64,000 bases of DNA from an uncultured Acidobacteriota bacterium (GTDB taxonomy: Bacteria; Acidobacteriota; Vicinamibacteria; Vicinamibacterales; CAVVIG01), in NCBI GenBank assembly GCA_963729215.1, contig CAVSND010000030.1, positions 74,239 to 138,238 of the forward strand, given 5' to 3'. The notes under the pieces are model-generated. The model worked only from the letters and a program-made list of their open reading frames with translations, was not told the DNA's origin and searched no databases. The translations under genes and the position numbers were made by a program. Of this stretch, positions 1,287 through 63,752 are shown piece after piece; within the stretch, counting starts at the first letter, position 1, and each line of letters begins with the position of its first letter.

Positions 1287-1838
1287 CTATCGATCGCGTT
1301 CGGCGTCGAGATGGCTCAAGGTGTACTGGCAGGGTCCGTATCCCTGCAACTCGGCGGCCTTGAGAACGGACGCCGCAGCGCGGGCCAGGGCGCTGTAAGC
1401 CGGCAGCCCGTCCGCGGCGTGCAGCTCTCTCGCGGCGTGGCTGAAGAGGGTCAGCGACGACACCAGTTTCAGCGCGTCCGTGGACGATCCCATCAGCGTG
1501 TTGATGGACGCGCCCCTCGACAGATGGTTCGCCACCTCGGTCGCGATCGCCAGCAGGCGTGAGCGAAGCGTGGGATGCCGCAGATACTCTTTGGCTTCCT
1601 CGAGGCCGTGAATGCCGTACGTGCGCGAGACGCTCGACGAACCAAGCCCCGCCAGCTGCGGACACACGTACCAAATCCAGTGGCCGGTCTTCGCCCCGGA
1701 CTGAATCTCCCGCAGCGCGGCGTCAAATCCCGAGGACGGCTGATCCTGCGCGTCCGTGAACCGCGCCAGCGCTGACGCGCCGGGACGGTCAGGGCGCTTT
1801 GCAGACAAAGTTCGCCGCGTCGTTGGTGCTGCCCGCAC
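1287..1838 (-). CDS. DUF1810 family protein
   Basis: Motifs LARFTDAQD..ALREIQSGAKTGHWIWYVCPQLAGLGSS..SRTYGI..EEAKEYLRHP. The ATG at 1838 overlaps the upstream gene by 50 nt, so the true start may be internal (about 1769). Confidence 0.65.
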   Translation of the reverse strand: MRAAPTTRRTLSAKRPDRPGASALARFTDAQDQPSSGFDAALREIQSGAKTGHWIWYVCPQLAGLGSSSVSRTYGIHGLEEAKEYLRHPTLRSRLLAIATEVANHLSRGASINTLMGSSTDALKLVSSLTLFSHAARELHAADGLPAYSALARAAASVLKAAELQGYGPCQYTLSHLDAERDR

Positions 1839-3307
1839 CCTTGTACTGGGCGACCGCGGGATACGGACAGAGCGGACGGACGATGTCCACGCGATTGTTC
1901 GTCACGTGATAGGCGGTCATCGTGTCCGGCGCGATGTTGCCCTCGCGCCAGCGTTCCATGATCGCCATGTAGTTGACCTGATTGGGTCCTGGACCACCGC
2001 CGCAGTGCTGCATGCCGGGCGCCATGAACAGCCGGACGAACTGATCCTGCTTGCCGCCCATCTTCCTGACCACGCTCTCGTAGTAGTTGATGCTGTTGCC
2101 CGGTGAAATGGCGGTGTCATCCCAGCCGTGGTACATCAGGAGCTTGCCGCCGTGGGCCTTGAACGCGGACAGATCCGGGTTGACGGCGTTGATGACGCTC
2201 CCGACCTTCTCATCCACGATCTTCAGGTCGCGGTCGAGGTCGAAGGTTTTCGCGTCCCAGTTCGCGTCGTTGTAGGCCACTTGAAACGATCCGACCGAGA
2301 CGCCGGGCGCGAGTTGGCCGGCGAGCACGCCCCAGCCGGTTTCACTGCCAGGCTCCTTGCCTGGAAATACCGCTTCCCCGCTCTTCGTCTTCGTCGTCGC
2401 GTAGGCTCGCTTCACCGATTCGAGCTGCGGCGCCGTCAGACAGCTGTCCGAGTCGGATTCCTTGCACAGGAGCGTTGACGGATCGAAGGAGCAGGCGCGC
2501 GGGTTGTTGATGAGGCCATCCTTCACGCCGTCTTTCGCGTCGCACGCGTCGATGGCGGCCTTGTTGAGCATCGCGAGCTTGGCGGCCGGCACGGCGGCGG
2601 CCGGATCCTTGAGCGCCGGCACGGCGACGCTGAGATCCCACGCGTGCAGATGCGTCTGGAAGTTGGCCGGCGCACCGGCCACGATCGCATCGAAATCCTC
2701 GGGGTATTTCTGCGCTTCCATCAGGCCCTGCCGTCCTCCCGTCGAGCAGCCGTTCCAGTACGACAGGCGCGGCGCCCGATCGTAGAACCTGGTGATCAGC
2801 GTCTTGCTGACGACGGTTGTCTCGTGCACGGCGCGGTACGCGAAGTCCACGACCTTTTCAGGATGGCCAATGGCGAACAGCGCGTTGCCGCCCTTGTGCC
2901 CGGTGTCGGTCGACGCCGTCGCATACCCTTCCTGCACGGCCGTCACCATCGCCGGAAAGCTGATGATGCCGGCCCAGCCGCCCCCGCCGACGAACTGAAA
3001 CTTGCCGTTCCAATTCTCCGGCAGCCACGCCTCCATCTCGATCTCCGAGTCGGACGACGGCCGCAGGATCGCGTTGACCCGGCAGTGCGCGGGCACGATC
3101 TGCGGCGGTGCTGCCGGTCCGCCCCGCCCGCCCTGGGCACGGACCACGTCCGGCCGGCGCGCCCGCGGGAGCCGGCGGCGTGAACGGGCCAGCCGCCACC
3201 ATTCCGGCCGCGACGATCGTCACGTTCGGCAGGGAGAGCGATTTCAGGCTTTCACACGTCGCCGGAGACGAAGCCAGGGTGGCGGAGAGCGCAAGTGCCA
3301 GAATCAT
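1789..3307 (-). pseudogene. tannase/feruloyl esterase family hydrolase, frame broken once near 3140-3165
   Basis: Signal peptide plus CESLKSLSLPNVTIVAAGMVAAGPFTPP lies in the frame of ORF 2858..3307. The rest (PAHCRVNAILRPSSDSEIEMEAWLPENWNGKFQFVGGGGWAG..NGCSTGGRQG) lies in ORF 1789..3147. The shift equals one extra nt. Confidence 0.75.
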
Positions 3308-3341
3308 CTTCAGCCCCCAATCCTAGTCATGAAATGCTTTT

Positions 3342-3413
3342 CACGAAGACACGAAGATCACGAAGTTACCTGGAACCGCCCCCGCAGACTTCGTGACTTC
3401 GTGATGTCACGTG
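3342..3413. repeat. palindrome built from CACGAAGA(T) tandem units (3 units, 21-nt loop, about 2.5 inverted units)
   Basis: CACGAAGA CACGAAGAT CACGAAGT ..loop.. ACTTCGTG ACTTCGTGATG TCACGTG. It sits between the Vgb-like stop (3417) and the tannase start (3307). The same unit occurs at 44669..44735. Confidence 0.8.
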
Positions 3414-3416
3414 CGA

Positions 3417-4463
3417 TCATTGAGTGAACCTGAGAAACGCGAGCTTGTTGCCGGCCGTAAACCAGAGCTTGTCGATCAATCGGTCCGCCGGACGACGATC
3501 GCTGCCTGCCGTCAGGCCCGTGGGACCTCCCGCCGGTGCCGGCAGGGGGAACTCGGTGATGACACCGTCCGGCGTGACACGGCCAAGCCTGCCGCCTTTC
3601 GTGTACCACACGTTGCGATCGGGGCCCACCGCGATATTGATCGGCGATCCGCCCTGGCTGGGAATCGGAAACTCGGTGATCTTGCCGTCAAGCGTGATGC
3701 GCGCCACGCGATTGCCGTCCACCACGCGGTCGTCCATGCGGCCGTTCAGTTCCACGAACCACATGTGGCCGTCGGCACCGGCGGTGATGTCACCCGGGCC
3801 GCTGTTGGGACGAGGCAGATCGAATTCCGTCACGTGCCCGTCAAGCGTCATGCGGCCGATCTTGCTCGCATGAAATTCCGAAAACCAGATATTGCCATCC
3901 GGTCCGGCTGCGAGCGCGCGCGGGCCGCTGTTGGGTGTCGGGATCGCAAACTCGGTAATCTCGCCGCGGGGCGTGACGCGGCCGATCTTGCCGGCGGCGA
4001 ACTCGCCAAACCAGACGTTGCCGTCGCGGCCCAGGGCCGTGGCGCGCGGCTGGCTGTCCGGTGTCGGAATGTCGAACTCCGTGATGACCCCGGCGGGCGT
4101 GATACGGCCCATCCGATTGCCAAGGTGCTCCGAGAACCAGAAGTTGCCGTCTGACCCGGCCGTAATGATTCGCGGCGCGCTCCCGGGATGCGGCAGCGGA
4201 TACTCGACAAGCCCCGATCCGTCCTGCGCCATGCGGCCGATCCGGTTGCCTGCGCTTTCGGTGAACCACAGCGTGCCGTCCGGCGCGATGGAAATCGTCG
4301 TGGGGCCGCTGCCCGGGTTCGGCAGCGAAAATTCCGTGAACGTCCCGGTCGCCGCCGGCGGATCAACCGCGACAGCCACGAGCTCCACCATGGAGACTAT
4401 CGTCAAGCAGAACAATGCGTTACGGACGATGGCGACGACTGGATCGGACGGGCTGACACGCAT
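3417..4463 (-). CDS. virginiamycin B lyase (Vgb)-like beta-propeller repeat protein with N-terminal anchor/signal
   Basis: Seven repeats of the form TEF.LP.P.SGP..I..G.DG..WF.E....IGR.T..G, characteristic of the Vgb/streptogramin lyase fold. Confidence 0.7.
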   Translation of the reverse strand: MRVSPSDPVVAIVRNALFCLTIVSMVELVAVAVDPPAATGTFTEFSLPNPGSGPTTISIAPDGTLWFTESAGNRIGRMAQDGSGLVEYPLPHPGSAPRIITAGSDGNFWFSEHLGNRMGRITPAGVITEFDIPTPDSQPRATALGRDGNVWFGEFAAGKIGRVTPRGEITEFAIPTPNSGPRALAAGPDGNIWFSEFHASKIGRMTLDGHVTEFDLPRPNSGPGDITAGADGHMWFVELNGRMDDRVVDGNRVARITLDGKITEFPIPSQGGSPINIAVGPDRNVWYTKGGRLGRVTPDGVITEFPLPAPAGGPTGLTAGSDRRPADRLIDKLWFTAGNKLAFLRFTQ

Positions 4464-8406: not shown

Positions 8407-10008
8407 ATGCGCGCGAAGTGGCTGCTCCACGCGGGGTTCGCACTTGCATTGGCGGTGCGTAGCGTCTGCCTTCAGGCAGACGGACAGGACGTCCGGCTGA
8501 AGCCGGACGCTACGGGTGTTCGTCTGGTGGAGGCCGTAAAAGCTGGCGACAAGGCCGCCATCACGACGCTGCTGAAGCAGAAGTCCGGCATCAATACGCC
8601 CGAACCGGACGGCACGACCGCGCTGCACTGGGCTGTTCGCCAGGACGATCTGGAGCTGACCGATCGCCTGCTGCGCGCCGGCGCTGACGTCAAGGCGGCG
8701 AATCGGTACGGGATCACACCGCTCTATCTGGCCAGCCTCAACGGCAACGCCGCCGTCATCGACAAACTGATCAAAGCCGGCGCAGACGCGAACGCCGCCG
8801 TGACTGAAGGCGAGACGGCGCTGATGACCGCTGCCCGCTCCGGCCACGTCGAGGCCGCCAGGGCACTGATCGCGCACGGGGCCGTGGTCGATGCCCGCGA
8901 GCAGTGGCGCGGCCAGACGGCGCTCATGTGGGCCGCGGCCGAGGGCCACGCGGACATGATCAAGGAGCTCGCCGCCCGCGGCGCAGACGTCAACGCGCGG
9001 TCAACCACGCAGCAGTGGGAACGCCAGGTGACCGCCGAGCCTCGCGAAAAATGGCTGCCGCCGGGCGGACTCACGCCGATGCTCTTCGCGAGCCGACAGG
9101 GATGCGTCGAGTGCGTGCGGGTGCTCGCTTCACTCGGCGCCGACGTGAACGCCACCGACCAGGACGGCATCAGCCCGATGATCTCGGCGATCATCAACGG
9201 GCATTTCGATGTCGCGGGCGCACTGCTCGAAAAGAACGCCGACCCCAACATTGCTGATGCGACGGGCCGGACGCCGCTGTATTCGGCCGTGGACCTGAAC
9301 ACCGTGCCCGACTCGAACCGTCCGGCGCCCCACGTCGTCGACAACCAGATGAGCGCGATGGAGCTGATCGCGTCCCTTCTCGACCACGGCGCGAACCCAA
9401 ACGCGCGGCTGAAGAAACAACAGCCGTACCGGACGAAGGTCGACCGCGGCAGCGACAGCATGCTCGGCGCCGGGACGACCCCGTTCCTGCGGGCGGCCAG
9501 GGCCGGCGACGCGCCGGCCATGCGACTCCTGCTCAAACGGGGCGCGGATCCGAAGATCGCCACGGGCTCTGACGTCCCGGTTGACGTCAGCCAGCCCGCG
9601 CGGCGCGCGCCCGGGGGCATCAACGCCCTGATGGCGGCGGCCGGACTGGGCTCGAAGGAAGAGGATACGGTCGGCCGCAGGAAGACCGAACGTCAGTCGA
9701 TCGAAGCGATCCAGGTATGCCTCGAAGCCGGCGTAGACATCAACGCCGTGGACGGCCGGGGTCAGACCGCCTTGTACGGCGCGGCGCTGCAGGGTTACGA
9801 CGAGGTCGTGAAATTTCTCCTCGCGCACGGCGCGAAACTCGACATCAAGGATCAGCGCGGTTTCACCGCGCTTGACGCCGCCGAAGGAAAGGCCGGCGGG
9901 TTCGGCTTCGGCGGCGGCTCCGCCAATCCGCACCCGGCCACCGCGAAGATCCTCCGGGACTCGATGAGCCCGCCCGCAACTCCGACGTCAACTCAGCAGG
10001 TCCGATAG
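8407..10008 (+). CDS. ankyrin-repeat protein, probably secreted
   Basis: Many G.TALH.A...G...V..LL..GADVNA-type repeats. The N-terminus MRAKWLLHAGFALALAV is signal-like. The start lies 2 nt after the DUF1552 stop. A REP copy lies inside codons 18-36. Confidence 0.85.
   Translation: MRAKWLLHAGFALALAVRSVCLQADGQDVRLKPDATGVRLVEAVKAGDKAAITTLLKQKSGINTPEPDGTTALHWAVRQDDLELTDRLLRAGADVKAANRYGITPLYLASLNGNAAVIDKLIKAGADANAAVTEGETALMTAARSGHVEAARALIAHGAVVDAREQWRGQTALMWAAAEGHADMIKELAARGADVNARSTTQQWERQVTAEPREKWLPPGGLTPMLFASRQGCVECVRVLASLGADVNATDQDGISPMISAIINGHFDVAGALLEKNADPNIADATGRTPLYSAVDLNTVPDSNRPAPHVVDNQMSAMELIASLLDHGANPNARLKKQQPYRTKVDRGSDSMLGAGTTPFLRAARAGDAPAMRLLLKRGADPKIATGSDVPVDVSQPARRAPGGINALMAAAGLGSKEEDTVGRRKTERQSIEAIQVCLEAGVDINAVDGRGQTALYGAALQGYDEVVKFLLAHGAKLDIKDQRGFTALDAAEGKAGGFGFGGGSANPHPATAKILRDSMSPPATPTSTQQVR
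8459..8513. repeat. REP-like double-hairpin element with compensatory stem changes
   Basis: GTAGCGTCTGCCTTCAGGCAGACG-GACAGGAC-GTCCGGCTGAAGCCGGACGCTAC. Both stems differ from the consensus by paired substitutions. Confidence 0.85.
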
Positions 10009-30974: not shown

Positions 30975-31070
30975 GGTGTCTGGGTCCTTTCCTTTCAGGA
31001 AATGCGCTTCTGAACCATTAGACGGCGCACCGCCTGTCAGGGACGTGGCTGGGACATTACAAAGAGGAAA

Positions 31071-31135
31071 GGTTCGAGAGGTTCGAGAGGTTCGAGGGGT
31101 TCGAGAGGTTCTAGGGGTTCGAGAGGTTCAGGTGG
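31071..31135. repeat. solitary tandem array of 7 GGTTCGAGA-type units
   Basis: GGTTCGAGA GGTTCGAGA GGTTCGAGGG GTTCGAGAG GTTCTAGGG GTTCGAGAG GTTCAGGTGG. It encodes the last residues (HLNLSNP*) and the stop of the histidine kinase. The unit is the same as at 63166-63752. Confidence 0.85.
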
Positions 31136-42548: not shown

Positions 42549-42594
42549 GTAGCGTCCGCCTTCAGGCGGACGTCCGGCTGAAGCCGGACGCTAC
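42549..42594. repeat. REP-like double-hairpin element (no spacer)
   Basis: GTAGCGTCCGCCTTCAGGCGGAC-GTCCGGCTGAAGCCGGACGCTAC, between convergent genes. Confidence 0.9.
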
Positions 42595-43525: not shown

Positions 43526-43900
43526 ATGCCATTCATCATTACCGACCCCTGCATTGAAACAAAGGACACGGCCTGCGTGGACGTGTGCCCGGTCGACTGT
43601 ATTCATCCGCGCAAGGACGAACCCGAATTCGCGCAGGTGACGATGCTCTACATCCACCCGGATGAGTGCATCGACTGCGGCGCATGCGTGCCGGCGTGCC
43701 CGGTGGCGGCGATTTACGAGAGCATCGACGCGACGCCGGCGCACCAGAAGGATCTGATCGAGGCCAACGCGATCTACCGGAACGCCGAACCCGACACGAT
43801 CGCGCGAGCCGAAGAGATCGTCAAGAAACACGTCGCGGACCACGCGGACATCATGGCCGTGCCGGCGGCGGAGCGGCAGGCCGCGCACGCGCGATTCTGA
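43526..43900 (+). CDS. ferredoxin (FdxA-like, [3Fe-4S][4Fe-4S] type)
   Basis: MPFIITDPCIETKDTACVDVCPVDCIH...HPDECIDCGACVPACPVAAI. GGAG lies upstream of the ATG. Confidence 0.85.
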   Translation: MPFIITDPCIETKDTACVDVCPVDCIHPRKDEPEFAQVTMLYIHPDECIDCGACVPACPVAAIYESIDATPAHQKDLIEANAIYRNAEPDTIARAEEIVKKHVADHADIMAVPAAERQAAHARF

Positions 43901-44643
43901 AAATCGCCACCTGGAACGTCAACGGCATCCGGGCGCGTCACGCGCAGGTTCAGGAATGGATCGCGCGGGACCGTCCGGACGTCGTCTGCCTCCAGGAAAT
44001 CAAAGCCACACCCGATCAAATCCCCGAGCTGCTGCTCGATCTCGACGGCTACTGGTGTTACTGGCACGGCGCCAAGGGCTATTCGGGCGTCGGCCTTCAC
44101 GTCAGCCGATCGCTGGCGTCCGAGCGTCCCACCTGTTCCCATCCTGAATTCAATTTCGAAAACCGGATCGCGGCCGTCGAGGTCGGCGAGATCACGGTCG
44201 CGTCCATTTACGTGCCGAACGGCGGGAAGGACTTCCCCGCCAAGATGCGATTCCTCGAGGCGCTCGACGACTACGCGGCTTCGTTCACGGCCAGCGGCCG
44301 GCAGCTGGTGCTCTGCGGGGATCTCAACGTCGCGCGCAGCGAGCAGGACGTGCACCCCAAGGAGCGCAAGCCGAAGGCGATCGGACAGCTGCCGGAAGAG
44401 CGCGCGCTCATCGAGCGCATACTCGGCCGCGGGCTGGTGGACCTCGGACGGGCTCTCGATCCCGCCAACGACGGGATGTTCAGCTGGTGGGCGCCCTGGC
44501 GCAACATGAGGCAGCGCAACATCGGCTGGCGGCTCGACTATGTGCTGGCGACCCACGCGCTTGCATCGCGCGCGCAGAGCTGTCCCGTGCAGGCGGACGT
44601 CGGGACGAGCGACCACGCGCCGGTCATGGCGACGTTCACCTAG
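43897..44643 (+). CDS. xth: exodeoxyribonuclease III
   Basis: LKIATWNVNGIRAR...VVCLQEIK..., GDLNVA, SDHAPV. No canonical start lies near the N-terminus (CTG 43897 / ATT 43894), and the gene overlaps the ferredoxin stop. Confidence 0.85.
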   Translation: MKIATWNVNGIRARHAQVQEWIARDRPDVVCLQEIKATPDQIPELLLDLDGYWCYWHGAKGYSGVGLHVSRSLASERPTCSHPEFNFENRIAAVEVGEITVASIYVPNGGKDFPAKMRFLEALDDYAASFTASGRQLVLCGDLNVARSEQDVHPKERKPKAIGQLPEERALIERILGRGLVDLGRALDPANDGMFSWWAPWRNMRQRNIGWRLDYVLATHALASRAQSCPVQADVGTSDHAPVMATFT

Positions 44644-44668
44644 AGTCCTGCGCAGCTAGAACAATGAA

Positions 44669-44735
44669 CCACGAAGATCACGAAGGTCACGAAGAAGGCT
44701 TAACCTGTAGAGAGAACTTCGTGATCTTCGTGATT
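44669..44735. repeat. palindrome built from CACGAAGAT tandem units (16-bp perfect stem)
   Basis: CACGAAGATCACGAAG (44670-85) pairs with CTTCGTGATCTTCGTG (44717-32). It is followed by the tandem CTGCTCTCGA/CTGCTCTCGC (44742-61). It lies between xth and pepT. Confidence 0.85.
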
Positions 44736-44770
44736 CGAGGATCTGCTCTCGACTGCTCTCGCAACCTGTC

Positions 44771-46016
44771 ATGAGTGACGTCCTCGAGCGGTTTCTGCGC
44801 TACGTGCGGTTCGACACGCGGTCGGACGAGAGCTCGACGACCGTCCCCAGCACCGCCTCCCAGCTGACCTTTCAGCGCCAGCTGGTCGAGGAGTTGAAGG
44901 GGCTCGGGCTCGCTGATGCCGCCCTCGATAACGCACGGTTACGTGATGGCCACCATCCCGGCCACGACGGCCAAGACCGGCGTGCCCGCCATCGGATTCA
45001 TCGCACACGTCGATACGTCACCCGAAATGAGCGGCTCGAACGTCGTGCCCCTCGTGCACGCCCGGTACGACGGCGGGGACATCCGCCTGCCGGACGATCC
45101 GGCGGCCGTCCTGCGGCTGGCCGACAATCCCGCGCTGCGCGCACAGATCGGCCACGACATCGTCACGGCGTCCGGCAACACGCTCCTTGGCGCGGACGAC
45201 AAGGCCGGCGTCGCCGAAATCGTCACGGCCGCCGAGTATCTGATGGCACATCCCGAGATCCCGCACGGGGTCGTCCGGATCGCCTTCACGCCGGACGAAG
45301 AGATCGGACGCGGCGCCACGCACTTCGACGTGCCGAGATTTGGATGCCGGTGTGCCTACACGCTCGATGGCGGCACCCGCGGCGAGGTCGAGAGCGAGAG
45401 CTTCTCGGCCGACGCGATGACACTCACGTTCGACGGCTTCAACACGCACCCCGGCTATGCGAAGGGCCGCATGGTGAACGCGATAAAGGTCGCCGCGGAC
45501 TTCATCCATCACCTGCCCTCCGACCGGCTGTCGCCTGAAATGACAGAGGGGTACGAGGGTTTCGTGCATCCGTACGTCCAGCAGTCAGGCGTCGATCGCA
45601 CCACCGTCCGGCTGATCGTGCGCGACTTCCGCACCGAGGGCCTCAAGGAGAAGGAAGCCCTCGTCGAACGCCTGGCCCGTGAGGCGGCCGCGCGCCATGC
45701 CGGCGCCCGCGTTGAAATCGTCCATCGAGGAACAGGTACCCGGAACATGAAGGCTGTCCTCGACCAGCACCCGGAAGTCGTGGAATACGCGTACGAGGCC
45801 GTCCGCCGCGCGGGTGTCGACGTCCGGGCCACGCCCATCAGGGGCGGCACGGACGGATCGAAGCTGTCGTTCATGGGCCTCCCCACGCCGAATCTGTTCG
45901 CCGGCGAGCACAACTTTCATTCGCGGCTCGAGTGGGTCTCGCGGCAGGACATGGAGAAAGCCGTCGACGTCATCGTCTGGCTCTGCCGCGTCTGGGAGGA
46001 GCGTTCCCCCGTCTAA
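44771..46016 (+). pseudogene. pepT: peptidase T (tripeptide aminopeptidase, M20B), frame broken near 44932
   Basis: MSDVLERFLRYVRFDTRSDESSTTVPSTASQLTFQRQLVEELKGLGLADAALD lies in the first frame. HGYVMATIPATT..IGFIAHVDTSPE..GADDKAGVAEI..FTPDEEIG lies in ORF 44916..46016. Confidence 0.85.
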
Positions 46017-48829: not shown

Positions 48830-48864
48830 TGCCGATCTCGTGCCATCTCGTGCCGATCTCGTGG
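48830..48864. repeat. tandem array TGCCGATCTCG x3
   Basis: TGCCGATCTCG TGCCATCTCG TGCCGATCTCG TGG, in the purA upstream region. Confidence 0.8.
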
Positions 48865-50188: not shown

Positions 50189-50190
50189 CC

Positions 50191-50232
50191 CGTTCCTCGT
50201 TTTCCGTTTTCCGTTCTACGTTCTACGTTCTA
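50191..50232. repeat. six tandem heptamers CGTTYYM
   Basis: CGTTCCT CGTTTTC CGTTTTC CGTTCTA CGTTCTA CGTTCTA, between convergent stops. It encodes the ..RT* end of the minus-strand gene. Confidence 0.85.
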
Positions 50233-51227
50233 GTTCCCAGGACTGGCAGCTTGATCAGCTTCGCCGGATTGTCCTTGAACATCATGTTCAACTCTTTCTC
50301 GGTGAAGCCGGCGCCGCGCAGCGCCTTGGCCGCCAGCGCCAGGGCGTCGGGATGGTTGTTGCCGGGCAAGCCGCTGTCGCTCGAGACAAAGGTCATTGCG
50401 GGTCCCACCTTGCGAATCGCGTCGAAGGCGCGGGCCTGGCCTGCCCCCTCGCGCGAGACCGTTCCCGCGGTGACCTCGATGTAGGCGCCCAGCCTGGTCG
50501 CCTCCTGCATCTGCTCGACGGTCATCGCCCCGCCAAGGCCGAGCAGCGGGTGCGTGACGATCATGCGCTGGACACCCCGCTTCTTGGCTTCGCGCATGAT
50601 CAGGAACGCCTCGTCCGGCGTCACGTGGCCGGTCGCAAGCGTCAGATCGTTCTGAGCGATGACCGAGAGCACTTCGAGCACCTCGGGGAGGAGCTGTCCG
50701 TTGCGCGACACGGCGACGAACGGGCGGTTCTCCTTGCCGGCCTTCACTTCCGGCTCGGAGTCGTGCGTCGGCATCCAGACGATGCGTCCCAGATGGCCGA
50801 CGACGTCGGCCATGTACCGGACCGCCTGCGGATTCATTCCGCCGACCGGGGTGTCGAGCGACACGCCGCCGAACACTTCGAACCCCGGCGTCGCGTACTT
50901 GCGCGCGAGGTACGCGAGTCCGGCCGTCTCGGTCCAGTGATTCTTCAGGAGCACGCCACGCATGCCGCGCTCCTGTGCCAGCTTCGCGACCTCGAAGCCG
51001 TCCCACGAGCGCGGATAGCTGTCCGGATCGCAGTGGGCGTGCAGGTCGATGGCGCCGATCAGTGCGGGGTCGGTCAGATGCTTGTCGACGGAGGGCGGAT
51101 ATTTTCGGTTCTTATACGACTCCCAGGCCGTCTGCGCACGAAGCGTGACGCCAGCCGTCCGCAACCCGACGGCAACAGCCATCACCGATCCGAGCACCAC
51201 CATGAACCGCTTCTGTCCTGCCGTCAT
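50223..51227 (-). CDS. amidohydrolase-fold metal-dependent hydrolase-like protein (secreted; DUF6282-like)
   Basis: Signal/TM MVVLGSVMAVAVGL. IDLHAHCDPD... and VTHP.. are His clusters of TIM-barrel hydrolases. The family name is from memory only. Confidence 0.5.
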   Translation of the reverse strand: MTAGQKRFMVVLGSVMAVAVGLRTAGVTLRAQTAWESYKNRKYPPSVDKHLTDPALIGAIDLHAHCDPDSYPRSWDGFEVAKLAQERGMRGVLLKNHWTETAGLAYLARKYATPGFEVFGGVSLDTPVGGMNPQAVRYMADVVGHLGRIVWMPTHDSEPEVKAGKENRPFVAVSRNGQLLPEVLEVLSVIAQNDLTLATGHVTPDEAFLIMREAKKRGVQRMIVTHPLLGLGGAMTVEQMQEATRLGAYIEVTAGTVSREGAGQARAFDAIRKVGPAMTFVSSDSGLPGNNHPDALALAAKALRGAGFTEKELNMMFKDNPAKLIKLPVLGTRT

Positions 51228-51240
51228 CGATCACCTCGTT

Positions 51241-51390
51241 CCGTGGAGAACGCCGGACCCGTGGAGAACGCAGAGGAGGGTCATAACGCAGAGATCGCAG
51301 AGATCGCCGAGAAGAGTACTTTGGAAAGTCAGTCTTTCTCTGCGATCTCCGCGATCTCTGCGTTTGAGAATGTCTCCGCGTTCTCAAAAG
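51241..51390. repeat. about 150-nt imperfect palindrome built from GCAGAGATC and GGAGAACGC units
   Basis: Inner arms GCAGAGATCGCAGAGATCGCCGAGAAGAG (51288-316) and TCTTTCTCTGCGATCTCCGCGATCTCTGC (51333-61) match at about 25/29. The centre is ACTTTGGAAAGT. Outer arms are TGGAGAACGCCGGAC and GTCTCCGCGTTCTCA. Confidence 0.85.
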
Positions 51391-58184: not shown

Positions 58185-58237
58185 GCTCGTGGCTCGTGCT
58201 CGAGCTCGTGGCTCGTCGTGGCTAGTGGTCGGTGGTC
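58183..58237. repeat. tandem CTCGTGG/CTCGTG-type short repeats between convergent stops
   Basis: GAGCTCGTGGCTCGTGCTC GAGCTCGTGGCTCGTCGTGGCTAGTGGTCGGTGGTC. It encodes the ..TTDH* end of rnc. Confidence 0.75.
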
Positions 58238-63165: not shown

Positions 63166-63230
63166 TTCGAGGGTTCGAGAGGTTCGAGGGGTTCGAGAGG
63201 TTCGAGAGGTTCAAGAGGTTCCGGAGATTC
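63166..63230. repeat. left inverted arm of GGTTCGAGA tandem units
   Basis: TTCGAGG GTTCGAGAG GTTCGAGGG GTTCGAGAG GTTCGAGAG GTTCAAGAG GTTCCGGAG ATTC. It starts 1 nt after the dedA stop. Confidence 0.9.
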
Positions 63231-63252
63231 GTCGGAGCGGCGGGCATGCTTT

Positions 63253-63684
63253 GTGCTCCCACGAACCTCCGTGGCTGGCGTGTCGCGCTACGAAGACCTT
63301 GTCGCATGGCACCTTGCGCACGAATTGCAGCGGGAGGTGTTTGCACTGACTGCAACAGGGCCGGCGTCGAGGGATTTCAGATTTCGCGATCAGATTCGCG
63401 ACTCGTCGTCATCCGTCACACGCAACATCGCGGAGGGGTTTGGCCGGTACCGGCCGGGCGAGTTCGCCAGGTTTCTCGACATCGCCAGAGGGTCGCTGAC
63501 CGAAACCCACAACAGCCTGCGCGACGGTCACGACCGTGGTTACTTCACAGCGTTCGACACCGACCGGATGCAACTTCTCGCGGGACGAGCGGCGAAGGCC
63601 ATCACCGGTCTGATCCGCTACCTGCGGACCTGCGCGCGTAAAAATACCGCCGCTCCGTCTCCGCGAATACCGCGAACCTCTTGA
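63253..63684 (+). CDS. four-helix-bundle protein (23S rRNA intervening-sequence protein / S23p family, TIGR02436-like)
   Basis: SRYEDLVAWHLAHELQREVFALT...FRFRDQIRDSSSSVTRNIAEGFGRYRPGEFARFLDIARGSLTETHNSL. The true start is probably GTG 63271 or 63280. The stop TGA lies inside the right arm. Confidence 0.8.
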   Translation: MLPRTSVAGVSRYEDLVAWHLAHELQREVFALTATGPASRDFRFRDQIRDSSSSVTRNIAEGFGRYRPGEFARFLDIARGSLTETHNSLRDGHDRGYFTAFDTDRMQLLAGRAAKAITGLIRYLRTCARKNTAAPSPRIPRTS

Positions 63685-63752
63685 GCCCTGAACCTCTCGA
63701 ACCTCTCGAACCCCTCGAACCTCTCGAACCCCTCGAACCCTCGAACCTCTAG
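63674..63752. repeat. right inverted arm (GAACCTCTC/GAACCCCTC units), reverse complement of 63166-63230
   Basis: GAACCTCTTGAGCCCTGAACCTCTCGAACCTCTCGAACCCCTCGAACCTCTCGAACCCCTCGAACCCTCGAACCTCTAG. It contains the stop codons of the 4HB gene and of cutA. Confidence 0.9.

Follow-up and report, generated by a model that had tools for sequence, protein, structure and literature searches.

Palindromes of CACGAAG units between acidobacterial genes, very probably the gene-less form of a hairpin family that elsewhere encloses a GxxExxY gene

Why should two separate intergenic spacers of one bacterium hold palindromes built from the same short unit? The two lie in a 64-kb stretch of DNA (hereafter the window; 64,000 nucleotides (nt) of contig CAVSND010000030.1, G+C content ∼66%) from an uncultured Acidobacteriota bacterium. 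Each consists of tandem copies of the heptamer CACGAAG followed, after a short loop, by inverted CTTCGTG copies, and we refer to them as copy 1 and copy 2 (Table 1). We are highly confident that both are members, lacking an open reading frame (ORF), of a family of CACGAAG hairpins. Elsewhere the CACGAAG hairpin tightly encloses a gene for a GxxExxY protein, and for this reason the palindromes look like the empty form of a widespread and seemingly undescribed selfish gene cassette. The best explanation of the whole, which we hold with moderate confidence, is that they are ORF-less members of a horizontally spread family of hairpin cassettes whose arms serve as recognition arrays.

The two copies have the same unit and the same plan. 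Copy 1 has a left arm of three units (3342–3365; CACGAAG at 3342, 3350 and 3359 on the plus strand), a loop (3366–3388) and a right arm of two inverted units (3389–3403; CTTCGTG at 3389 and 3397). Its unit spacings are 8, 9 and 8 nt, with spacers A, AT and TT, and its gap measures 21 nt between the extended arms TCACGAAGT and ACTTCGTGA or 23 nt between heptamers. The order is ttTCACGAAGA CACGAAGAT CACGAAGTT, loop, ACTTCGTG ACTTCGTGATG. Copy 2 also has three units on the left (44670–44694; heptamers at 44670, 44679 and 44688), then a 22-nt loop (44695–44716) and two inverted units (44717–44732; at 44717 and 44726). Here the spacing is 9 nt throughout, the spacers are AT, GT and AA, and the order is aaCCACGAAGAT CACGAAGGT CACGAAGAA, loop, CTTCGTGAT CTTCGTGAT.

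The original prediction described copy 1 as an ORF-less palindrome of direct and then inverted 9-mer units in the intercistronic spacer between the stop of a virginiamycin B lyase (Vgb)-like gene at 3417 and the start of a tannase gene at 3307. It also proposed that copy 2 shares the unit and differs in loop and in unit number. Clusters of exact heptamers confirm the palindrome at both loci, the placement and lack of an ORF are as described, and sequence comparison bears out the common unit and the different loops. The unit number is the same, three plus two in each copy; it is the loop sequence and one spacer length that differ.

The palindromes are not a product of chance, because the two-unit pattern CACGAAGNNCACGAAG, with up to two mismatches, matches the window eight times where 0.75 matches are expected, and none of 100 shuffled sequences equalled this. 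Exact matches to CACGAAGNNCACGAAG are confined to copies 1 and 2, which are also the only two loci in the window with clusters of exact heptamers. Either strand is predicted to fold into a long stem (−31 to −42 kcal/mol, z −3.4 to −6.1). The whole window gave no Rfam match at the gathering threshold, and at E≤10 just chance-level models of miRNA hairpins. There are no terminator-like sites in 3100–3600 or 44450–44950, and no U-tract is present, so neither copy is an intrinsic (Rho-independent) terminator. A promoter scan around the copies found nothing.

Do such palindromes occur in other bacteria, as the original prediction proposed to establish? Scanning one genome per species with the pattern CACGAAGNNCACGAAGN{10,40}CTTCGTG gave at least 120 loci, against about 8 chance matches by our own estimate. 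Among the matches listed, the loci come from Acidobacteriota, Desulfobacterota, Methylobacter and other Gammaproteobacteria, Verrucomicrobiota and Chloroflexota, and also from Planctomycetota, Binatia, Nitrospirota, Schekmanbacteria and Sumerlaeota. Cultured carriers include Desulfobacter vibrioformis DSM 8776, Herpetosiphon sp. NSE202 and Bowmanella denitrificans JCM 13378, and viral contigs of IMG/VR add 44 loci.

A single design runs through the matches listed: (T)CAC-[CACGAAG+RR]×2–4, a loop and an inverted arm. Arms vary from two to four units and spacers from 1 to 3 nt; among the short spacers 2 nt is the rule (333 of ∼430), GA and AG being commonest, besides GG and AA. The arms usually end in the caps (T)CAC and, mirrored, GTG(A). 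The median loop is 24 nt. The end motif of the ORF-less form has A at −2 in a fraction of 0.70 and C at −1 in 0.62. Both window copies fit this family in having at least two CACGAAG units 1–3 nt apart and an inverted CTTCGTG array after a short loop. The left end of copy 2, GAAC-CACGAAG, carries the AAC end motif of the family and its right end reads CTTCGTG-ATTC, whereas copy 1 begins TTTT-CACGAAG, without the family motif (T)(C/A)AC. Subfamilies can be told apart: in Terriglobia a 3-nt gap sets the third unit apart, and loops of Binatia and of the delta group contain a small TTCGGA..TCCGAA hairpin of their own.

ORF-less elements typically lie ∼50 nt from each flanking gene. For the 87 elements in which both neighbours could be called (the calls are crude), the genes are in tandem in 58 cases, convergent in 20 and divergent in 9. 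Some loci have two or three hairpin copies within 8 kb. Around the 120 listed loci we found no enriched host gene family or transposase, the largest cluster of neighbours comprising 15 of the 120. No four-helix-bundle gene was detected near CACGAAG elements by phmmer, and no 23S rRNA lay beside the elements when the Escherichia coli rrn sequence was compared with ∼290 loci by blastn.

The same hairpin also exists in a form that carries a gene. At two genome loci the CACGAAG arms stand ∼375 nt apart around an ORF of 123 residues, which encodes a GxxExxY protein (TIGR04256, E=7e-45; PF13366 PDDEXK_3, E=2e-43). A metagenome scan for two units, 365–395 nt and two inverted units yielded at least 120 loci. 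Among the matches listed, a GxxExxY gene is present in 98 of 120, at full length in 78; the remaining 22 are clustered ORF-less palindromes, or loci with CACGGAG, CGCAAAG or CAGYGAG hairpins nested in the loop. The encoded proteins are 45–85% identical to the first example, and the heptamer is exact even at 45%.

The fit between arms and gene is precise to the codon. In 33 of 67 cassettes just 0–1 nt separate the last unit from the start codon, and in 47 of 67 the stop codon is 2–4 nt short of the first inverted unit. A Shine-Dalgarno-like GAAGGA, ∼7 nt upstream of the ATG, is supplied by the preceding unit's purine-rich spacer. Three units per arm are the norm. The end motif is that of the ORF-less form but sharper (A 0.88 at −2, C 0.84 at −1), and both forms occupy intercistronic spacers. 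The CACGAAG family supplies the arms of GxxExxY cassettes. NFNVTK, the conserved C-terminal motif of GxxExxY, is encoded by ...AACGTCACGAAG... (1290–1300 of locus L031, and other cassettes), so that the gene itself carries the arm heptamer once, perhaps by coincidence.

What is the enclosed protein? GxxExxY is predicted to adopt a PD-(D/E)XK nuclease fold: D67, E77 and K79, corresponding to the catalytic D...ExK, are invariant, as is the GxxExxY motif. A survey of the PD-(D/E)XK superfamily left the function of PF13366 unassigned and noted multiple transfers between divisions (PMC3424549). At least 8,000 protein clusters are related to it at E≤1e-5. Lacimicrobium (Gammaproteobacteria), Desantisbacteria and Bipolaricaulota have proteins that share 85% identity with a GxxExxY of Desulfobacteraceae, and the complete genome of Lacimicrobium alkaliphilum carries the matching CACGAAG/GxxExxY cassette; to judge by such similarities, the gene appears to move between phyla. 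We found no GxxExxY in phage records and only eight plasmid or chromid records with it.

The heptamer variants track the GxxExxY clades. In Bacteroides finegoldii the arms read TCAC-CACAGAG/CGCAGAG/CACGGAG ... CTCTGTG-GTGA and lie between radA and the adjacent gene. The Bernardetia clade uses CACAGAG, the variants of these two groups overall being CACAGAG, CGCAGAG and CACGGAG. In Gemmatirosa a CGCAGAG palindrome adjoins the GxxExxY gene, and in Sphingomonas the heptamer is CGCGAAG and the gene lies between fabD and fabG. Relatives of 35–37% identity, and four-helix-bundle genes, have inverted arrays of quite different 7–13-nt units. Cassettes armed with CACGGAG, CAGYGAG or CGCAGAG are few among the loci collected. 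On a chromid of Sphingomonas parapaucimobilis (245–673 in the coordinates of locus L306), a CGCGAAG left arm with GxxExxY splits the normally adjacent fabD and fabG, a candidate for a datable insertion. Hairpins of CAGYGAG, CACGGAG, CGCAAAG and CACGAAG share TCAC...GTGA ends and are found nested in each other's loops, where they build dense intergenic stacks (L159, 2090–2680 and 4140–4580; L182, L207, L215, L245 and L247).

How stable is the element at one site? For copy 2 this can be followed in the spacer between the exonuclease III family gene (xth) and the peptidase T gene (pepT) of related metagenome contigs, and the hairpin is indeed conserved in part, a point on which the original prediction had laid weight. 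In contig L129 the hairpin is complete, its right arm altered to CTTTGTG/CTTTGCG. Six further contigs (L121 and five others) keep the three-unit left arm and have lost the right arm by deletion, their flanking genes intact. The left arm has three units in the window, L129 and L121 alike; decay of the right arm has proceeded by point mutation or deletion, not slippage, as expected of a dispensable element. In three more distant contigs (L123, L125 and L127) the identical spacer holds a palindrome of another unit, (GGCAGGAT)n ... (ATCCTGC)n, at about 4125–4245 in locus coordinates, which suggests either that unit families succeed one another at the site or that elements land there by preference. 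For copy 1 no usable orthologue was found: the exact Vgb protein has no record, and its nearest homologues, 72–79% identical, have an FKBP gene downstream instead of tannase.

Are the arms read as DNA or as RNA? In 58 elements from co-directional contexts, folding energy favoured the sense strand in 26 and the antisense strand in 32, a balanced result. When 92 gene-bearing cassettes were oriented by their gene, arm mismatches were of the G.U type in 109 cases and of the A.C type in 97 (p=0.44). The spacers drift from purine to purine and from pyrimidine to pyrimidine, independently in each arm, while the heptamer stays fixed, which fits arms that are read as sequence and not merely paired.

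We propose, tentatively and with somewhat less than even confidence, a mechanism in which the arrays are sites of a nuclease acting in trans and the elements spread by a homing-like or conversion-like process. The heptamer arrays would be recognized by their sequence, for the most part as DNA. Their most plausible reader would be the predicted nuclease of the cassette itself, supplied in trans by a copy at another genomic locus. ORF-less palindromes would then be non-autonomous or vacant copies that are kept, spread or homogenized by homing or conversion of this kind. Where they are transcribed with their neighbours the elements should form a long stem-loop, which RNase III could cut, as it does in the intervening sequences (IVSs) of 23S rRNA; any such cutting would be incidental and not the selected trait. 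In its widest form the proposal is speculative, and we would sooner doubt it than rely on it: arrays of the type C-R-C-R-R-A-G would be the recognition sites of GxxExxY proteins, arms and gene together an undescribed class of mobile cassette whose homing or conversion is directed at dispersed repeat-built hairpins, the ORF-less palindromes its vacant or non-autonomous targets, and the four-helix-bundle cassettes free-living relatives of ORF-containing 23S rRNA IVSs.

A number of observations weigh against the cassette explanation. No GxxExxY gene is present anywhere in the window, both copies being of the ORF-less form, and a trans-acting partner in the source genome therefore has to be assumed. 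No relative of GxxExxY was found by sequence in the PDB, and the AlphaFold model, built on a shallow alignment, is poor (mean confidence score, pLDDT, of 51). None of 182 ORF-less loops contains a remnant of GxxExxY, so the relation of the ORF-less to the gene-bearing form is neither simple insertion nor simple deletion. We found no target-site duplications: flanking direct repeats were 0–3 nt long in 235 elements, as in the control. Comparing flank to flank by blast for gain or loss at orthologous hairpins returned extra nested hairpins, no empty site and no clean pair, which leaves distribution as the one ground for mobility. Within the spacers, 81 of 150 positions (54%) match their counterpart in the other arm as complements, against 51.6±5.6 by chance, so that pairing or recent inverted copying contributes to some degree. 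Finally, all three right-arm changes in L129 are C-to-T and preserve G.U pairing on the sense strand.

The last two of these observations would be expected if the palindromes were host RNA elements, that is, RNase III sites, stabilizers of mRNA 3′ ends or non-canonical terminators that uncouple the flanking genes. The very stable folds (z down to −6.1) point the same way, as do the position of the copies between co-directional genes and the rarity of elements between divergent genes across the family. A palindrome of another unit in the xth-pepT spacer of relatives gives the impression that this site calls for a hairpin, and the similarly built stems of 23S IVSs are cut by RNase III (PMC4990558). 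Structure alone, however, needs no identical heptamer from Acidobacteriota to Gammaproteobacteria, and neither the transcribed nor the cargo strand shows an excess of G.U over A.C mismatches. There is neither a U-tract nor an Rfam match, pairing extends to only 54% of spacer positions, and six orthologous contigs have lost the right arm with their flanking genes intact. We regard a host RNA element as unlikely. It is less probable still that the arms are binding sites of a global regulator or nucleoid protein of the host. Inverted pairs of tandem 7–9-bp units do resemble cooperative operator arrays, and the paired repeats listed for Geobacter metallireducens were read as putative sites of global regulators, with integration host factor (IHF) or HU suggested (Aklujkar et al. 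2009; PMC2700814). Yet the CACGAAG arms enclose a single selfish-looking gene family with codon-level precision and travel with GxxExxY across phyla. The elements lie mostly after genes or inside operons instead of at promoters, and no host gene family stands out among their neighbours.

Could the palindromes be classical non-autonomous transposons, either miniature inverted-repeat transposable elements (MITEs) moved by a DDE transposase or repetitive extragenic palindromes (REPs) and their REPIN forms moved by the REP-associated transposase RAYT? Such elements are likewise short, multicopy intergenic palindromes, at times clustered or nested, often between convergent or co-directional genes, and they are the non-autonomous partners of a protein-coding element; a separate REP-like family of GTAGCG type coexists in the window. 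But a MITE was rejected, since the 235 elements lack target-site duplications, no transposase is enriched in the flanks and the only recurrent cargo is GxxExxY. REPs fare no better: the CACGAAG unit has no GTAG-type core, no RAYT is enriched nearby, the arms are modular 7+2 arrays and the partner gene lies inside the hairpin. We consider this origin very improbable. The idea least in keeping with the data is in-place slippage of the 9-mer into a microsatellite-like palindrome, which we judge hardly credible as the source of the elements. The original prediction had favoured local expansion and contraction over copying of an element. The range of two to four units per arm and spacers of 1–3 nt across the family support it in so far as some gain and loss of units does happen. 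It is not the main cause: the family is dispersed across phyla with a fixed architecture, conserved ends and a gene-carrying form, its heptamer, end motif and design recurring at hundreds of unrelated loci; both window copies have three plus two units and all orthologous left arms have three.

If the palindromes are instead ORF-less members of a cassette family, what known systems do they resemble? Homing endonuclease genes, among them the PD-(D/E)XK enzyme I-Ssp6803I, are small nuclease genes placed precisely in a defined sequence context, of which vacant versions exist, and they have spread widely by horizontal transfer. GxxExxY cassettes are like them in precise placement, vacant contexts and horizontal spread. 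They differ in that the context is a repeat-built hairpin with many copies per genome and not an intron, intein or conserved gene, and in that homing here is our own interpretation. Ribbon-helix-helix repressors such as the omega protein and MetJ are small proteins that read contiguous direct or inverted units of 7–8 bp cooperatively. Such operator arrays are not numerous, occur at promoters and belong to a particular plasmid or regulon, whereas CACGAAG arrays are dispersed, come after genes and flank a gene of predicted nuclease fold.

A closer parallel is the ORF-containing IVS of 23S rRNA in Coxiella burnetii and Leptospira. The Coxiella IVS is 428 nt long, with a 28-bp terminal stem that RNase III cuts in the middle and an S23p ORF in the loop (PMC4990558). 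IVSs share with the CACGAAG family the terminal inverted repeats that form a long stem and a loop that is short or holds one small ORF. Their sporadic distribution is ascribed to horizontal transfer and they are regarded as selfish (PMC4990558). They are confined to helices 9, 25 or 45 of 23S rRNA, however, and none of the ∼290 loci here is in rRNA; an IVS location was rejected for both window copies, which lie between protein-coding genes. The Coxiella stem is described without short tandem repeats (PMC4990558), the copies studied here are ORF-less, the CACGAAG cargo is GxxExxY and not S23p, and the stem is as yet a prediction.

Paired repeats of classes 1–3 in G. metallireducens are also similar. 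Their description lists 24, 21 and 8 pairs, the units being GTTGCTYN, TCTCCGTS[Y] and MTYCTGA (Aklujkar et al. 2009; PMC2700814). Three to five tandem 7–9-nt repeats are paired with others on the opposite strand, the distance between them varying; the pairs occur in many copies and for the most part between genes, an architecture that both window copies match, with a unit that differs from those of all three classes. The class 2 unit TCTCCGTS given there is the complement of the CACGGAG variant that is nested with CACGAAG arms. Unlike the present family, they were described in one genome and read as IHF/HU sites, and the text consulted mentions no link to GxxExxY or four-helix-bundle genes, no cross-phylum family and no CACGAAG unit.

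Copies 1 and 2 are not the only repeat arrays in the window (Table 1). The CGCAGAG(AT) palindrome at 51285 can be placed in a CACGAAG superfamily, roughly C-R-C-R-R-A-G, because distant GxxExxY clades carry sister heptamers: in Bacteroides and Gemmatirosa, GxxExxY genes have CGCAGAG and CACAGAG units around or beside them. The window also has a gene-carrying cassette of another kind, in which arrays of ∼7 and ∼9 GGTTCGAGA units stand ∼440 nt apart around a gene (63253–63684, 143 residues) for a four-helix-bundle or 23S rRNA IVS protein (TIGR02436, E=2.6e-23; PF05635, E=3e-25). The design of arms around a gene is thus common to four-helix-bundle cassettes, and the cargo belongs to the same family, PF05635 (S23p, four-helix bundle), as the ORF of rRNA IVSs. 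This is an IVS-like cassette between protein-coding genes, outside rRNA. The solo GGTTCGAGA array is probably the remnant of half a cassette, possibly left by a deletion. GTAGCG-type palindromes like those of the window are also nested within CACGAAG hairpins, in loci L061 and L220.

Two of the four genes flanking the copies have broken frames. The tannase gene is split into an N-terminal frame (2858–3307) and a Pfam-matching frame (1789–3147), both on the minus strand; pepT is interrupted near 44930 (frames 44771–45538 and 44916–46016, plus strand). These may be pseudogenes or indel errors of a long-read assembly, and if they are errors the 8-nt spacings of copy 1 would also be suspect. The true start of xth is probably later than 43666.

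Table 1. Palindromes, other repeat arrays and flanking genes in the window
Feature	Coordinates	Strand	Description
CACGAAG palindrome, copy 1	3341–3405	none	ORF-less; between two minus-strand genes
CACGAAG palindrome, copy 2	44666–44736	none	ORF-less; between xth and pepT (plus-strand genes)
Virginiamycin B lyase (Vgb) family gene	3417–4463	−	PF24684; upstream of copy 1, stop codon at the 3417 side
Tannase/feruloyl esterase gene	1789–3307	−	Pfam match; downstream of copy 1, start at 3307
Exonuclease III family gene (xth)	43666–44643	+	Exo_endo_phos; upstream of copy 2
Peptidase T gene (pepT)	44771–46016	+	M20; downstream of copy 2
CGCAGAG(AT) palindrome	51285–51364	none	ORF-less; 9-mer CGCAGAGAT; three units, 22-nt loop, three inverted units; 7+2 design
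Gene-carrying cassette, unit GGTTCGAGA	63166–63750	+	Arrays at 63166–63231 and, inverted, 63673–63750
Solo array, ∼6.7 GGTTCGAGA units	31070–31129	+	No inverted partner nearby
Short direct array CGTTTTC/CGTTCTA	50190–50236		Beside a gene end
Short direct array CGATCTCGTGC	48830–48863		Beside a gene end; contains CTCGTG, similar to the CTTCGTG unit
Short direct array GCTCGTG	58185–58216		Beside a gene end; contains CTCGTG, similar to the CTTCGTG unit
REP-like palindrome family GTAGCG..CCTTCAGGC / GCTGAAGCC..CGCTAC	8458–8514 and 42549–42594		Separate from the CACGAAG family

In the literature we found no text that ties such repeats to GxxExxY or four-helix-bundle genes or that describes a cross-phylum CACGAAG family, the descriptions of NCBI families lying outside this search; a full-text search with six 16-mers of the repeat returned only unrelated primer matches.

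What would the cassette explanation mean? Few small hypothetical proteins of bacterial genomes are as abundant as GxxExxY and the four-helix-bundle proteins of 23S IVSs, for which no function is known. Their genes sit with single-codon precision inside hairpins made of clade-specific short repeats, and gene-less hairpins of the same kind litter operons across phyla. Under the proposed mechanism both the proteins and the orphan repeats would gain a concrete, testable role as a nuclease and its recognition array. The hairpins would also frequently give rise to strong stem-loops within operons, a source that annotation pipelines overlook. The pair of protein and DNA site would be compact and potentially exploitable, and, if the idea is true, the origin of ORF-bearing rRNA intervening sequences would be explained.

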